Shown here in pieces: positions 6,414 to 46,758 of a stretch of 47,217 nt of DNA (position 1 is the first letter of the stretch; every line of letters begins with the position of its first letter). A model generated the notes under the pieces. The model was not told the origin of the DNA, did not search any database, and worked only from the letters and a program-made list of their open reading frames with translations. The DNA comes from Thermostichus sp. DRC_bins_24 (GTDB taxonomy: Bacteria > Cyanobacteriota > Cyanobacteriia > Thermostichales > Thermostichaceae): NCBI GenBank assembly GCA_039794845.1, contig JAUQVK010000053.1:1-47217 (forward strand), written 5' to 3'. The position numbers and the translations under genes were made by a program.

Positions 6414-7262
6414 ATGCCCAGTGCCACCCTGTTGGTGTCTTGCCCCGATCAGAAAGGGTTGGTAGCCAAGCTCTCTGCCTTTATCCACAGCTACGACGGC
6501 AATATCATCCACGCCGATCACCATACGGATCCCGAGGCGGGGTTGTTCTTGAGCCGCATCGAGTGGGATTTGCAAGGGTTTCAGCTAGAACGGGCGGAAA
6601 TCATTCCCGCCTTTTCGGGCATTGCCCGCAGCATCCAGGCCAACTGGGAGCTACACTTTTCCGATGCCTGCCCCCGCATCGCCCTCTGGGCTAGCAAACA
6701 AACCCACTGTCTACTGGATCTGATCTGGCGGCAACGGGCCGGGGAATTACCGGCGGAAATCCCCCTGATCATCAGCAATCACCCGGATCTGGAACCCACA
6801 GCCCGTTCCTTTGGCATCGACTACCATTACATTCCCGTCTTGGCTCCCCAGAAAGCAGAAGCCGAGGCACAACAACTGACCCTTCTGAAGGAGTATCGCA
6901 TTGACTTGGTGGTGCTGGCCAAGTACATGCAGGTTTTGAGCGGATCCCTGCTCCGCCAGTCCCCGCCGGTAATCAACATTCACCACTCAACGCTACCCGC
7001 CTTTGCCGGGGCCAACCCTTACCACCGCGCCCACCAACGGGGGGTCAAGATCATCGGTGCAACCGCCCATTACGCCACCGAAGATCTGGATGAAGGGCCG
7101 ATCATCGAACAGGATGTGATGCGGGTGAGCCACCGCGATACTGTGGCCGACCTCATCCGCAAAGGCCGCGATATGGAGCGGATGGTTTTGGCGCGGGCCG
7201 TGCGCTACCACCTGGAAAATCGGGTGTTGGTCTACCGGAACAAAACGGTGGTGTTCGCTTGA
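6414..7262 (+). CDS. purU: Formyltetrahydrofolate deformylase
   Basis: N-terminal ACT domain (CPDQKGLVA); INIHHS, GATAHY and LDEGPIIEQ motifs. Confidence 0.97.
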   Translation: MPSATLLVSCPDQKGLVAKLSAFIHSYDGNIIHADHHTDPEAGLFLSRIEWDLQGFQLERAEIIPAFSGIARSIQANWELHFSDACPRIALWASKQTHCLLDLIWRQRAGELPAEIPLIISNHPDLEPTARSFGIDYHYIPVLAPQKAEAEAQQLTLLKEYRIDLVVLAKYMQVLSGSLLRQSPPVINIHHSTLPAFAGANPYHRAHQRGVKIIGATAHYATEDLDEGPIIEQDVMRVSHRDTVADLIRKGRDMERMVLARAVRYHLENRVLVYRNKTVVFA

Positions 7263-11682: not shown

Positions 11683-12414
11683 ATGGCCCAAGCGAACGTC
11701 CTGCCCAACGCCCCCCAGCCCTTGGCTGGTGAAGGTCGCACCGCCCCTGACTACGGCAGTACTGTTTACCGGCAGGCCTACTCACGCATCAACGCCATCG
11801 TCATCGAAGGGGAGCAGGAAGCCAACGACAACTACCTGAAGCTAGCGGAGATGTTGCCCGAGGCAGCAGAGGAGTTGCGCAAGCTGGCCAAAATGGAGTT
11901 GCGCCACATGAAAGGCTTCCAATCCTGTGGCAAAAACCTGCAGGTGGAGCCAGATATGGACTTTGCTCGCGCCTTCTTTTCCCCTTTGCACAGCAATTTC
12001 CAAAAAGCTGCCGCAGAAGGAGACCTGATCACCTGTTTTGTGATCCAGTCTTTGATCATCGAGTGTTTTGCCATAGCTGCCTACAACATCTACATTCCGG
12101 TTGCCGATGACTTTGCCCGCAAGATTACCGAAGGGGTGGTCAAGGACGAATATCTGCACCTCAACTTCGGTGAACGCTGGCTACAGGAGCACTTCAGCGA
12201 GGCCAAAGGACAAATCGAAGCGGCCAACGCCCAAAACCTCCCCCTCGTCTGGCAAATGCTGCAGCAGGTGGATGAGGATGTGGAGAGCATTTATATGGAT
12301 CGAGAAGCCATTGTCGAAGACTTTATGATCGCCTACGGCGAAGCTTTGGCAAACATTGGCTTCAATACTCGCGAAGTGATGCGTCTCTCCGCCCAAGGCT
12401 TACGGGCCGCATGA
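11683..12414 (+). CDS. ado: Aldehyde-deformylating oxygenase
   Basis: [16 protein letters not shown] plus di-iron ELRH and DEYLH motifs. Confidence 0.97.
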
Positions 12415-12544
12415 TCCACCATGACCTACTCCTCGGTAACGAACGGATTGGGTTTTCTGGCCTAGCTCCGACAGCCACCTACCCTCTTGGGGTATGGACG
12501 TGCTCTGATGGGATCCATAGAATTATCCAAGCGAGTCAACCTTT

Positions 12545-13582
12545 ATGTTCGGCCTGATCGGGCATTTAACCAGCCTTACCCATGCGCAACGGGTGGCAGA
12601 TAAGCTGGGTTACCCAGAATATGCAGAGAGCGACCTGGAATTTTGGTGCATGGCTCCCCCTCAGGTTGTGGATGAGATCACGGTGACCAGCATTACCGGC
12701 CAAAAGATCCATGGGCAGTACGTCGAATCCTGCTTCTTGCCAGAAATGCTGGCGGGCGGACGGGTGAAAGCGGCCTGTCGGAAGATTTTAAATGCCATGG
12801 CCTTGGCCCAGCGGCGGGGTCTGAGCATTACTGCTTTGGGGGGGTTCAGCAGCATCATTTTCGAGAACTTTCGCCTCGACAGCCTCAGACGGGTGCGCAA
12901 TATCGATTTGGAGGTGCAGCGCTTCACCACCGGCAATACCCACACCGCCTACATCATTTGTCAGCAGTTGCAGTCGGCGGCCCAGCGCTATGCCATGGAT
13001 TTGGCGGCGGCCACAATCGCGGTGGTAGGAGCCACGGGGGATATCGGCAGTGCCATCTGTCAATGGTTGGCTGCCCACACCCATTTGGGCAAGTTGTTGC
13101 TGGTGGCGCGAGATCGACTGCGCCTGGAGGAGTTACGGGCTAACCTCAAGCTAGGGGAGATCTGCTCGGTGGAAGAGGCTCTACCCCGTGCTGATTTCAT
13201 CGTTTGGGTGGCGAGCATGAGTCAGGGTATGGTGCTCAATCCGCAGGTGCTGCGGGATCCCTGCGTGATTATCGACGGTGGCTACCCGAAAAACATTGCC
13301 TCCACCCTGCACCGGCAGGGGGTTCATGTGATCGATGGCGGCATGGTGGAACACTCTCTTGATATTGAATGGAGCATTATGCAGTTTTTGAATGTGGCCA
13401 ATCCGGCTCGTCAGTTGTTTGCCTGTTTTGCCGAGTCGATGTTGCTGGAGTTTGAGGAGTTGCATACCAACTTCAGTTGGGGGCGTAATCTGATCACCCT
13501 CGAGAAATTGGATCTGATCGGGCAGCTGTCTCGCAAGCATGGGTTCCGTCCCCTGATGCCCGAAGCCCAGCCTCTCAATTGA
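12545..13582 (+). CDS. aar: Long-chain acyl-ACP reductase (aldehyde-forming)
   Basis: [28 protein letters not shown] and FACFAE motifs; follows ado. Confidence 0.97.
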
Positions 13583-40354: not shown

Positions 40355-43567
<3,213 letters not shown>

Positions 43568-43964
43568 GCCCGCCCCATGCCAAGGGTTTGGCCGGTGAGA
43601 GGGGATTTGGATCCTGCCATCCTGACCAACCGACAAAGATCGCAATGTCTCAGTACCCATTTGTGTCAGTAGATTAATTTGTTTCACATTCCCCCCGCCC
43701 ACAGTTAGGGATCCCTGTCGCTCGCAAGGGGATTGTCTAGCCTGGGGTAAGAGGCTCACCCAGAATGGAGCTTTTCGAAGATGAATTGCACTGTGTAAAT
43801 GTTAGGTGAATGTCTGGTTGCACTTGCATCTTTTCTCATCTTTTTCTTTTTGCCTGTCGGTTGCCCGATTGAGCTGAGCCATCGTCACCCAATCTTTCCA
43901 CTCAGGCTCAATTGACAGGCAGATGGACAGGCCCTGTTGATGATCGTTCAGGAGTCATTCTCTT

Positions 43965-45035
43965 ATGAGCATCTTGATTCGACGTTCCCCCAGCCTAACG
44001 AGAACTTGGGGCTGGAATGGTTTTTGTCAGTGGATTACCAGCACCGAAAACCGACTGTATATCGGTTGGTTCGGGGTGTTGATGATCCCCACCTTACTGG
44101 CGGCAGCTATTTGTTTTGGGATCGCCTTTATTGCGGCTCCGCCTGTGGATATGGACGGGATCCGTGAGCCGGTGATCGGCTCCTTGATGGGGGGAAACAA
44201 CTTCATTTCAGCAGCGGTTGTGCCCACTTCGGCAGCCATTGGCCTCCATTTTTATCCGATTTGGGAAGCGGCTTCTTTGGATGAGTGGCTGTACAACGGT
44301 GGCCCCTATCAGCTGATTGTGCTGCACTTTTTGATCGGGGTGTGGTGCTACCTGGGGCGGCTGTGGGAGCTGAGCTACCGACTGGGGATGCGTCCCTGGA
44401 TTGCGGTGGCGTTTTCTGCCCCGGCTGCGGCTGCTACGGCAGTGTTGTTGGTGTACCCGATCGGCCAAGGCAGTTTCTCCGAAGGCTTGCCCCTGGGGAT
44501 TGCCGGAACCTTTCATTTCATGTTGGCCTTCCAAGCTGAGCACAACATCTTGATGCATCCCACCAGTTGGCTTGGGGTAGCCGGGGTATTGGGTGGAGCG
44601 CTGCTGGCGGCCTTGCATGGCTCGTTGGTGACCTCCAGCTTGATCCGAGAAACCCATGAAATGGAGTCCGTTAATGCGGGCTATCGTTTTGGGCAACAGG
44701 AAGTTACCTACAACTTCATGGCGGGGCACTACGGCTTTCTAGGGCGATTGTGGGTTCCCAGCCTCGGCTTCAAAAACAGCCGTTCGGTGCACTTTTGGAT
44801 GGCGGCGTTGCCCACGATCGGTCTATGGGCGGCGGCAATTGGAATTGGCATGATGGCCTTTAATCTCAATGGCCTGAATTTCAACCAGTCCATTTTGGAT
44901 AGTCAGGGGCATTTCATCGGCACCTATGCCGATGTGCTCAACCGCGCCAACTTGGGGATCCAAGCGATGCACTCTCCCAATGCTCATCATTTCCCGCTGT
45001 TGTTGGCGGCAGAAGGGATCCAATCTGTTGGTTGA
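43965..45035 (+). CDS. psbA: Atypical 'rogue' (group 2 / sentinel-type) photosystem II D1 protein
   Basis: Clear D1 ([22 protein letters not shown]) carrying D170E, E333S, R334P and D342L; lacks the ChlF QD motif. Confidence 0.92.
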
Positions 45036-45059
45036 GATAGTTGAGATCTTTGGCTGAGA

Positions 45060-45143
45060 TCAGCTTGACTCGCAGGAGCCCCGCGCTCTACCTGCAAGGT
45101 GTTGGCGTGAGCCTGCCGCTAGGCATTGCGTTGGGTAGCTTAC
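45060..45143 (+). mobile_element. Solo IS200/IS605 right-end remnant (ends GGGTAGCTTAC)
   Basis: Near-copy of 6265-6348. Confidence 0.75.
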
Positions 45144-45219
45144 GCTAGAGCGGAAAGATGGCCGGTGAGGAGTGTTCATCTGCGATAGGGACTGTTTACC
45201 CTACGGGGAGGATCTGGCC

Positions 45220-46758
45220 ATGGAAGTGTTTGACTATGTGGTGTTGGGTGCTGGATTGGGGGGCCTGGCTGCTGCTGCCTGCCTCAGCCGTCAGGGATCC
45301 CGGGTAGCGGTGTTGGAGAAGCACTATTTGCCCGGTGGCTGTTGCCATACCTTCGACTATGGCAATTATTGCTTTTGTGCGGATGTCCACTACATTTCCC
45401 AGTGTGGGCCGGGGCAAGCGATTGACCAGTTTCTCAACTACCTTGGCCGCGAGGTGCAATTCAATTCGTTGGATCCCGATTGTATTGACCGAGTGATTAC
45501 CCCAGAGGCGGACTTTGCCATTCCCCTAGGGTGGGAGAACTTGCGCAACCGCCTGTTGGATCAATTCCCAGAAGAAGCCCCAGCAATCGAGCGCTACTGT
45601 GATGAAATTCAACGCCTGCACGACGACATTCACAACCTCAACCAAGAAGTGCGCTGGTACGATCCGAAGTGGTACGACTGGCTGAAACTACCCAAGTATT
45701 TCAACCTTTTCCAGAAACGCCACTGGACACTGCAAAACCTCTACGATCACGTCGGCCTTTCCCCCAAATTACAGGCGGTGTTGGCGGGGCAAAGTGGGGA
45801 TTATGCCCTCCCTCCCAAAGAGATCGCCCTGCTCACCCATACGGCTCTGGTTTGGGATTATTCGGAAGGAGCCTATTATCCACAGGAGCACTTCAAGGGG
45901 TTTGTGGACACGATTGTGGATGCCATTCTGCAGCAGGGAGGCACGATTCGCTACTCCACCCCGGTTGAACACATCGAAGCCAAAAGGGGGGCAGTGGAAT
46001 GGGTAACGGCGGGCGGCACCAACTTTGTCGCCAGCAAAGCCTACATCAGTGATCTGGACCCGAAACTGACCGTAGAGCTGATGCACGGGGGATCCCTGAG
46101 CAAGGCGGAGCGGCAGCGCCTCACCAACTACGAGTATTCTGCCAGCGCCTTCAATATCTACCTGGGTCTGGATAGCCGCTTCAACCCCGCCAGATACGGC
46201 ATCGGCAACTGGAATATCTGGTACTATCCCGACGGGGATCTCAACCGGGCTTACGAGCAACAACTGGCGGGCAACCTGGAGCACCCCTGGATCTTCCTCT
46301 CTTGCCCAACACTGAAATCCACTGCACCCGGCATGGCTCCCCCCGGACACCATGTGCTGGAGATTGCCACCGTTTGCCCCTACGAGCCCTTCAAGCACCT
46401 GCACGATACCGATCCCAAAGCCTATAAGGCCAAAAAACGGGAGGTTTACCAGGCGGTGATGGCCAGCGTGCGGGATCTCATCCCAGACGTGGATCGCTAC
46501 ATCCGCATGAAGGTATACGGCACCCCCACTACCAGCGAATTCTTCTTGGGCCAGCCGCAGGGCAACATCTACGGTGCCAAGTTGGTGCCCCAGCAGGTGG
46601 GGCTGCACCGCCTCGGCTACACAACGGAGCTGCCGAACCTCTTTCTGGTGGGGGCCAGCGCCGGGTATCCGAGTGTGCCGGGGGTGATCAGCAATGGCAT
46701 GGATGTGGTGGAACTGATCACCGGCAGGCGGGTGCGGCGTTCGCCGGTGAGGGTGTGA
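45220..46758 (+). CDS. Phytoene desaturase / carotene isomerase / retinol saturase-family FAD oxidoreductase
   Basis: GAGLGGL...VLEKH..PGG Rossmann fold; GTPTT....G...GNIYG and NLFLVG motifs. Confidence 0.85.
   Translation: MEVFDYVVLGAGLGGLAAAACLSRQGSRVAVLEKHYLPGGCCHTFDYGNYCFCADVHYISQCGPGQAIDQFLNYLGREVQFNSLDPDCIDRVITPEADFAIPLGWENLRNRLLDQFPEEAPAIERYCDEIQRLHDDIHNLNQEVRWYDPKWYDWLKLPKYFNLFQKRHWTLQNLYDHVGLSPKLQAVLAGQSGDYALPPKEIALLTHTALVWDYSEGAYYPQEHFKGFVDTIVDAILQQGGTIRYSTPVEHIEAKRGAVEWVTAGGTNFVASKAYISDLDPKLTVELMHGGSLSKAERQRLTNYEYSASAFNIYLGLDSRFNPARYGIGNWNIWYYPDGDLNRAYEQQLAGNLEHPWIFLSCPTLKSTAPGMAPPGHHVLEIATVCPYEPFKHLHDTDPKAYKAKKREVYQAVMASVRDLIPDVDRYIRMKVYGTPTTSEFFLGQPQGNIYGAKLVPQQVGLHRLGYTTELPNLFLVGASAGYPSVPGVISNGMDVVELITGRRVRRSPVRV

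Follow-up and report, generated by a model that had tools for sequence, protein, structure and literature searches.

A Group 2 rogue D1 with serine at the PD1 axial-ligand position in a Thermostichus contig

The rogue psbA gene and its protein

The 47,217-nucleotide contig JAUQVK010000053.1 of Thermostichus sp. DRC_bins_24 (assembly GCA_039794845.1), referred to below as the window, carries near its 3' end a psbA gene encoding a divergent form of the D1 subunit of photosystem II (PSII). The encoded protein has the residues of a Group 2, or rogue, D1, and it has serine where standard D1 has His198, the axial ligand of the PD1 chlorophyll. Thermostichus is the newer name of the Yellowstone-type A/B Synechococcus lineage. 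The features of the locus are collected in Table 1.

Table 1. Coordinates of features at the rogue psbA locus.
Feature	Position	Strand	Details
Upstream blocks conserved with locus L001 (ATTTGT.., TTTCACATTCCC, AGTTAGGGATCCCTGTCG, TGTCTAGCCTG)	43659..43744	+	From pairwise alignment; about 220-300 nt before the start
AGGAG, Shine-Dalgarno-like	43950..43954	+	10 nt 5' of the ATG; kept in L001
Rogue (Group 2) psbA coding sequence	43965..45035	+	Intact open reading frame, 356 residues, ATG start, TGA stop
HPTSW motif	44556-44570	+	Within rogue psbA
Thr197-Ser198-Trp199 (canonical numbering)	44562..44570	+	Codons ACC-AGT-TGG; replaces Phe/Leu-His-Met/Gln
Remodelled QB loop	44721..44771	+	One-residue insertion after H252, plus S264G
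C-terminal Mn-cluster ligand region	44967..45008	+	H332, H337, A344 kept; E333S, R334P, D342L
C-terminal extension AEGIQSVG after A344	45009..45032	+	8 residues; length from alignment

The protein matches the Pfam family PF00124 (Photo_RC) with an E-value of 6.8e-87. A phmmer comparison with Protein Data Bank chains aligned query residues 17-350 with D1 residues 14-346 (E = 1.1e-168), which fixes the offset to canonical D1 numbering at +3, as a first-pass annotation of this DNA had proposed, and reveals the one-residue insertion after H252; canonical numbering is used throughout. The score against the NCBIfam model TIGR01151 (psbA), 590.5 bits, narrowly misses the equivalog cut-off of 596.05, as is expected of a divergent paralogue.

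Residue columns were read from a MAFFT alignment of the query with its 120 best database hits and from a second alignment, and both agree on what is changed (N87A, Q/E130L, D170E, N181H, F197T, H198S, M199W, S264G, E333S, R334P and D342L) and on what is retained (Y161, E189, H190, H215, H252, H272, H332, H337, A344, H118, T179 and M183). All the substitutions and retained residues listed in the first-pass annotation are among these, including H198S at 44565-44567, where the codon AGT, the 201st of the reading frame, corresponds to canonical position 198, that of the PD1 axial ligand. The ligand set of the Mn4CaO5 cluster is incomplete, with D170E, E333S and D342L altered and E189, H332 and A344 kept; the other cofactor ligands are present, namely H118 (ChlZ), Y161/H190, and H215 and H272 (non-haem iron), as are the Mn ligands H332 and H337. 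At the axial position for PD1 the column tables have Ser where a standard D1 has His198, and the loss of this histidine, as first described for this gene, is borne out.

The extension after A344 varies in length among close relatives, being 8 residues in the window protein and 2-4 residues in the orthologue of locus L001 (about positions 7045-7053), described below, and in the database proteins P0007 and P0008. The window protein has LLLA in place of the LDLA processing context, so that processing by CtpA may differ or be absent.

In order to place the protein within the D1 family, we ran a quick maximum-likelihood tree search on 126 rows, 119 of Group 2 and, as outgroup, 7 taken from the 66 standard D1 rows. 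Only rows of 340-400 residues were admitted, the three columns of the motif were deleted beforehand, and Group 2 class was assigned by a crude rule on positions 333, 334 and 342; with Group 0 and Group 1 sequences outside the tree, the placement concerns Group 2 and standard D1. Group 2 rows split from standard D1 with a Shimodaira-Hasegawa-like approximate likelihood ratio test (SH-aLRT) value of 100, and the window protein lies inside Group 2. Its signature (A87, E170, H181, G264, S333, P334, L342), in which E333 and D342 are lost, position 170 is Glu, position 334 is Pro and the QB pocket is altered (G264), agrees with the description of Group 2 by Cardona et al. (2015; PMC4408414). On these sequence grounds the gene is a Group 2 rogue or sentinel D1 (PsbA, 'rPsbA'), and the group assignment of the first-pass annotation stands.

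The best cluster representative (P0004) is 92% identical to the window protein, and the nearest named relatives are those of Synechococcus sp. H55.2 (P0008; 88%) and Synechococcus sp. M44_DOE_062 (L001; 87%). The sentinel PsbA4 of Cyanothece/Crocosphaera subtropica ATCC 51142 (P0073) is 73% identical, and shares with the window protein A87, L130, E170, H181, G264, A/S333, P334, a residue other than Asp at 342 and the insertion after H252, which is therefore a Group 2 trait and not a peculiarity of the window gene. It differs in that His198 is kept, flanked by Leu197 and Met199.

A scan of genome_contigs supplied 80 loci, of which one, L001, from the metagenome-assembled genome (MAG) Synechococcus sp. 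M44_DOE_062, is a close orthologous locus sharing the order carB-psbA-ask; the other 79 hold standard D1 or other Group 2 genes. With one such locus available, the ratio of non-synonymous to synonymous substitution rates (dN/dS) is a single pairwise estimate, and it amounts to 0.069 (NG86) or 0.111 (YN00) for rogue psbA over 351 codons, at 86.9% amino acid identity. These values are similar to those of the housekeeping neighbours carB (0.053 by NG86 and 0.044 by YN00; 1070 codons) and ask (C-terminus, 0.132 and 0.155; 131 codons). The five codons of the motif are CAT CCC ACC AGT TGG in the window and CAC CCT GCT AGC TGG in L001, those for His195, Pro196 and Ser198 differing only synonymously (AGT against AGC for Ser).

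Could the gene nevertheless be a decaying copy, or the three-residue change an artefact of sequencing or assembly? The NCBIfam score below its cut-off and the numerous catalytic residues that are gone might be taken that way. Against this, the reading frame is intact, dN/dS is 0.07-0.11, the motif HP[TA]SW recurs at an independent locus of another genome and in 9 protein clusters that are likewise independent, the Ser198 codon varies synonymously, and in situ transcripts of orthologues have been published. We give this explanation a negligible chance and consider it refuted by the low dN/dS, the recurrence of the motif and the synonymous variation of the Ser codon. The first-pass annotation had already argued that three consecutive changes in an intact frame are not a sequencing error, and had asked whether dN/dS lay near 1, as in a decaying gene, and whether Ser198 was conserved; the ratio is not near 1, and Ser198 is kept in the L001 orthologue and in close relatives. 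By evolutionary criteria, then, the rogue psbA is functional, under purifying selection and not decaying.

Distribution and origin of the Ser198-Trp199 motif

Our first census covered 200 distinct rows, consisting of the window protein, 120 proteins and the locus translations. His198 is present in all 77 standard D1 rows, while the 123 Group 2-class rows, 3 of them truncated or doubtful, include 8 with HP[T/A]SW, one with Ala198 (P0092) and one with Asn198 (P0112). His198 is lost in 10/123 Group 2-class rows against 0/77 standard rows (Fisher p 0.008, a value that is only indicative because the rows are phylogenetically dependent). Judging from these sequences, His198 has been lost more than once in Group 2, and never in the standard D1 rows examined.

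A second database search, limited to residues 186-225, returned 196 candidates, of which 104 proteins had E <= 0.001, and added three further motif carriers (P0121, P0122 and P0123). Altogether HP[TA]SW occurs in 9 of the 191 cluster representatives fetched, and in L001; the regular expression used for this count missed 8 of the 191 proteins, of which P0025, P0040 and P0053 have His in the column table and the other five (P0177, P0182, P0189, P0190 and P0191) stand outside the motif count. The carriers comprise a close set, 85-92% identical to the window protein and including Synechococcus sp. H55.2, and a distant set (P0028, P0034, P0065 and P0123) at 74-76% identity.

The motif residues are strictly coupled. 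Ser198 is found in 8/8 carriers, in none of 111 other Group 2 rows and in none of 7 standard rows, and Trp199 has the same distribution, its place being taken by Met in 90 and Gln in 21 of the other Group 2 rows. Position 197 is Thr or Ala in carriers, against Leu or Phe in the Group 2 motifs tallied. Outside the motif, Leu342 is present in 8/8 carriers and 11/111 other Group 2 rows, and Ile288 in 7/8 carriers, its frequency in other Group 2 rows falling below the 15% filter. The carrier-specific columns bring in no His, Asn, Gln or Met that could serve as a new ligand. The cofactor ligands other than that of PD1 are conserved in all 11 carriers wherever the column is present, the fragment P0121 being without the Y126-D170 stretch. 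Over residues 186-225 of helix D, the window protein is 85-95% identical to P0004, P0008, P0034 and P0123, against 74-92% for the whole proteins.

Without constraint, the tree groups 7 of the 8 carriers, along with one long-branch intruder (SH-aLRT 92), and P0028 falls in an unresolved polytomy. Constraining the 8 carriers to one clade gave a log-likelihood 13.6 above that of the free quick tree, with a p-value of 0.66 in the approximately unbiased (AU) test. As the constrained tree is not worse, a single origin of the carriers is compatible with the data, and the carriers would be compatible with one clade reaching down to about 74-76% identity to the window protein.

Two observations concern other Group 2 rows. 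P0092 (HPFAM) and P0112 (HPLNM) belong to Group 2, lack Trp199 and branch apart from the Ser198 group. Some Group 2 rows have Asn at H195 (NPLHM/NPFHM, 21 rows) or Gln at H215.

The first-pass annotation had presented H198S as an additional, novel feature, one that would lose its novelty if already described among Group 2 D1s, and here the published record goes against it. The substitution is real but has been known since 2015, when Cardona et al. reported Ser at this position in the Group 2 D1s of Synechococcus JA-2-3B'a and JA-3-3Ab, and Gln in that of PCC 7336 (PMC4408414). The genes concerned, CYA_1748 of JA-3-3Ab and CYB_0216 of JA-2-3B'a(2-13), likewise encode Group 2 rogue D1s with His198 replaced by Ser (PMC4408414), and the window gene is of the same kind, a likeness drawn from their description. 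Group 2 psbA has also been found in Thermostichales MAGs in a 2024 study (PMC11304991). In contrast to the serine itself, the coupling of Ser198 with Trp199 may be unreported. Cardona et al. do not name M199, W199 or F197 anywhere in their main text (PMC4408414), and a literature search for 'H198S' with 'photosystem II' found nothing, which leaves room for mentions in Wegener et al. 2015 or Sheridan et al. 2020.

Upstream region and neighbouring genes

Pairwise alignment with L001 identified conserved blocks upstream of rogue psbA (Table 1), the remaining carB-psbA spacer not being alignable between the two loci. These blocks could be a candidate regulatory site for night or anoxic expression. 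No sigma-70-like site was found in 43500..45250, no NtcA-type GTAN8TAC near rogue psbA and no match to Rfam families in the window, and the RNA fold of the conserved block is not unusual (z +1.07). The palindrome GGGATCCC occurs 48 times in the window against 2.5 expected, a count reached in 0 of 100 shuffles, with examples at 43708-43715, 43525-43532 and 45294-45301; it behaves like a highly iterated palindrome, HIP1-like with a variant core. Together with the named nearest relatives and the literature, this count connects the window with the A/B Synechococcus lineage.

The gene content of the window (ispH, purU, an ABC transporter, the alkane genes ado and aar, rpoB-C1-C2, pyrR, prfC, carB and ask) is that of an ordinary cyanobacterial chromosome, and no nif or photosystem neighbour genes are found within its 47 kb. 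The adjacent genes for aldehyde-deformylating oxygenase and acyl-(acyl carrier protein) reductase (11683-13582, forward strand), both scoring well above their equivalog cut-offs, represent the cyanobacterial alkane pathway.

Between rogue psbA and ask lies an open reading frame of 528 residues (45172-46758, forward strand) for an FAD oxidoreductase of the CrtI/CrtD/carotenoid-isomerase family, whose best NCBIfam scores are far below the cut-offs. In L001, ask stands directly 3' of psbA with no CrtI-family frame between them, and tblastn found no match to this frame in any of the 80 loci fetched. A conserved partnership between the two genes was rejected on these grounds, and the frame looks like a lineage-specific insertion and not a partner of the rogue D1.

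The neighbourhood also bears on the possibility of an enzymatic role. ChlF, the Group 1 'super-rogue' D1, is like the window protein a D1 paralogue without Mn-cluster ligands and without water oxidation (PMC4408414). By analogy with ChlF, the maker of chlorophyll f, the rogue D1 might belong to an enzymatic complex outside electron transport. Such a role has been suggested for PsbA4 complexes from their low abundance (PMC9640542), and an activity directed at pigments would be in keeping with a clade-fixed change that falls precisely on a pigment site. However, the gene falls in Group 2 and not in Group 1, the Trp256 that Cardona et al. give for Group 1 and that is seen in the G. kilaueensis sequence (PMC4408414) is replaced by Gly256 in the window protein, and there is no conserved pigment-biosynthesis neighbour, the CrtI-like frame being found neither in L001 nor in the other 79 loci. 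We therefore regard an enzymatic role as very unlikely.

The PD1 site and the function of rogue D1 centres

PSII with a Group 2 D1 (Cyanothece PsbA4 expressed in Synechocystis; Wegener et al.) does not evolve O2, according to PMC4408414 and PMC9640542; the latter describes PsbA4 of strain 51142 as dark-expressed and, as sole D1 of Synechocystis, as yielding a non-photosynthetic strain (PMC9640542). Olsen et al. (2015; PMC4477158), working on the mat of Mushroom Spring, found that transcripts of the rpsbA genes CYA_1748 and CYB_0216 fall in the morning and rise in the late afternoon in a nif-like manner, being high from late afternoon to morning. For the orthologues, this speaks to the question of expression that the first-pass annotation had left open.

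As for the ligand, H198A and H198K mutants of D1 exist, with photoautotrophic growth recorded for H198K (PMC4408414). PSII of T. elongatus carrying H198Q in PsbA3 forms [PD1PD2]+ with a blue shift of about 3 nm (bioRxiv 10.1101/2024.02.15.580457), and in Synechocystis H198 variants the potential goes down by about 80 mV (Diner 2001, as given in the review PMC8517396, which swaps the D1 and D2 labels). In these engineered proteins, H198Q in T. elongatus PsbA3 and H198A/K and others in Synechocystis 6803, the PD1 axial histidine is replaced as it is in the window protein, but the background is a standard O2-evolving D1, Trp199 is absent and a photoactive chlorophyll is retained.

The reading we favour, with a probability of roughly 0.6, is that the gene encodes the rogue or sentinel D1 of a hot-spring Synechococcus A/B-type cyanobacterium, which would form non-O2-evolving centres and keep the PD1 pigment. 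If it behaves as its published orthologues do, synthesis of the rogue D1 would fall between late afternoon and morning, while there is no oxygen in the mat and nitrogenase is being expressed; as in published relatives, the protein would replace standard D1 in PSII and give centres unable to assemble a normal Mn4CaO5 cluster or to evolve O2. A pigment would remain at the PD1 site; it would most probably be a chlorophyll, ligated axially by water or by the hydroxyl of Ser, and Trp199 together with the smaller residues at 197 and 198 would repack the space vacated by the imidazole. The potential of the primary donor would be altered, probably lowered, and charge separation would be poorer. More speculatively, a donor of lower potential might limit the damage that a Mn-less centre does to itself at dusk and dawn.

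That the engineered H198 mutants keep a photoactive chlorophyll supports retention of the pigment at PD1. Conservation is higher in helix D than over the full protein, as expected if pigment is still bound, although helix D has other contacts too. The first-pass annotation had envisaged a PD1 chlorophyll either altered or absent: an altered chlorophyll is plausible, whereas an absent one would run against the published ligand mutants.

The opposite outcome at this site would be that, without His198, Trp199 fills the cavity and excludes water, so that PD1 is empty or occupied by pheophytin, a natural chlorophyll/pheophytin 'heterodimer', and the centre is photochemically near-dead, the quencher or structural placeholder that the first-pass annotation had suggested. 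In the purple-bacterial special pair, replacement of His by Leu gives bacteriopheophytin and faster excited-state decay, whereas small residues retain bacteriochlorophyll. The His to Leu precedent, the loss of the His ligand with a bulky hydrophobic Trp fixed alongside in 8/8 carriers, and the lack of a substitute His, Asn, Gln or Met in the carrier-specific columns would all fit this outcome, and the engineered mutants are all without the Trp199 that could exclude water. Moreover, L130 or Q130 in Group 2 predicts a low-potential pheophytin and a reduced yield of charge separation (PMC4408414). On the other hand, in the published D1-H198 Q, A and K variants the PD1 chlorophyll stays photoactive, the small, polar side chain of Ser favours, by the bacterial precedent, a chlorophyll bridged by water, and the strong conservation of helix D suggests that the pocket binds something specific. 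An empty or pheophytin-filled PD1 is in our view unlikely. Quite unlikely, too, is the more far-reaching proposal that Ser198, Trp199 and the small residue at 197 mark a natural PSII with pheophytin or no pigment at PD1, which would have arisen once and been selected in this subclade as a centre specialised for anoxic nights, whether non-photochemical, energy-dissipating or supplied by an alternative donor.

A further possibility is that the rogue D1 forms an anoxygenic PSII which oxidises an alternative donor, such as sulfide, and provides electrons when light is low and oxygen absent, the change of PD1 ligand tuning the donor potential. Olsen et al. (2015; PMC4477158) propose a sulfide oxidation role for rPsbA, the orthologues having nif-like diel transcription in a mat that contains sulfide. 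Y161, H190, E189, H332, H337 and E170 are kept, so that some donor-side chemistry would be possible; Cardona et al. (PMC4408414) allow for some kind of metal cluster in Group 2; and a drop in P+ potential, as in the H198 variants, would be harmless with an easily oxidised donor. However, no sulfide-related gene adjoins rogue psbA, and the Group 2 QB pocket is reminiscent of sites that resist herbicides and work poorly (PMC4408414), which speaks against turnover being sustained. We consider it quite improbable.

Several points weigh against the favoured reading with its retained PD1 pigment. Deletion of psbA4 in Cyanothece 51142 had a subtle effect, and its authors describe electron-transport regulation as independent of PsbA4 (PMC9640542); the function of Group 2 D1 itself is debated. 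The expression evidence would apply to the window gene by way of orthologues and not through the gene itself, and there being no nif genes within the 47-kb window, the link to nitrogenase rests on the literature. Occupancy of PD1 is extrapolated from engineered mutants without Trp199, which are imperfect guides. The tree is a quick one, as was the search behind the single-clade comparison, in which the AU group was chosen from the trait itself once the tree was known; and dN/dS comes from one pairwise comparison in which dS is near 1.

Beyond the substitution already described, the present analysis adds evidence of selection, the strict coupling of Ser198 and Trp199 with a small residue at 197, a wider clade of carriers and the repeated loss of His198 in Group 2, additions of modest value. 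Rogue D1s, about whose function there is still debate, are rare natural experiments in switching off or repurposing PSII. A branch of them that lacks the histidine of a central chlorophyll and is under purifying selection is a natural variant with which the importance of the PD1 ligand can be probed.

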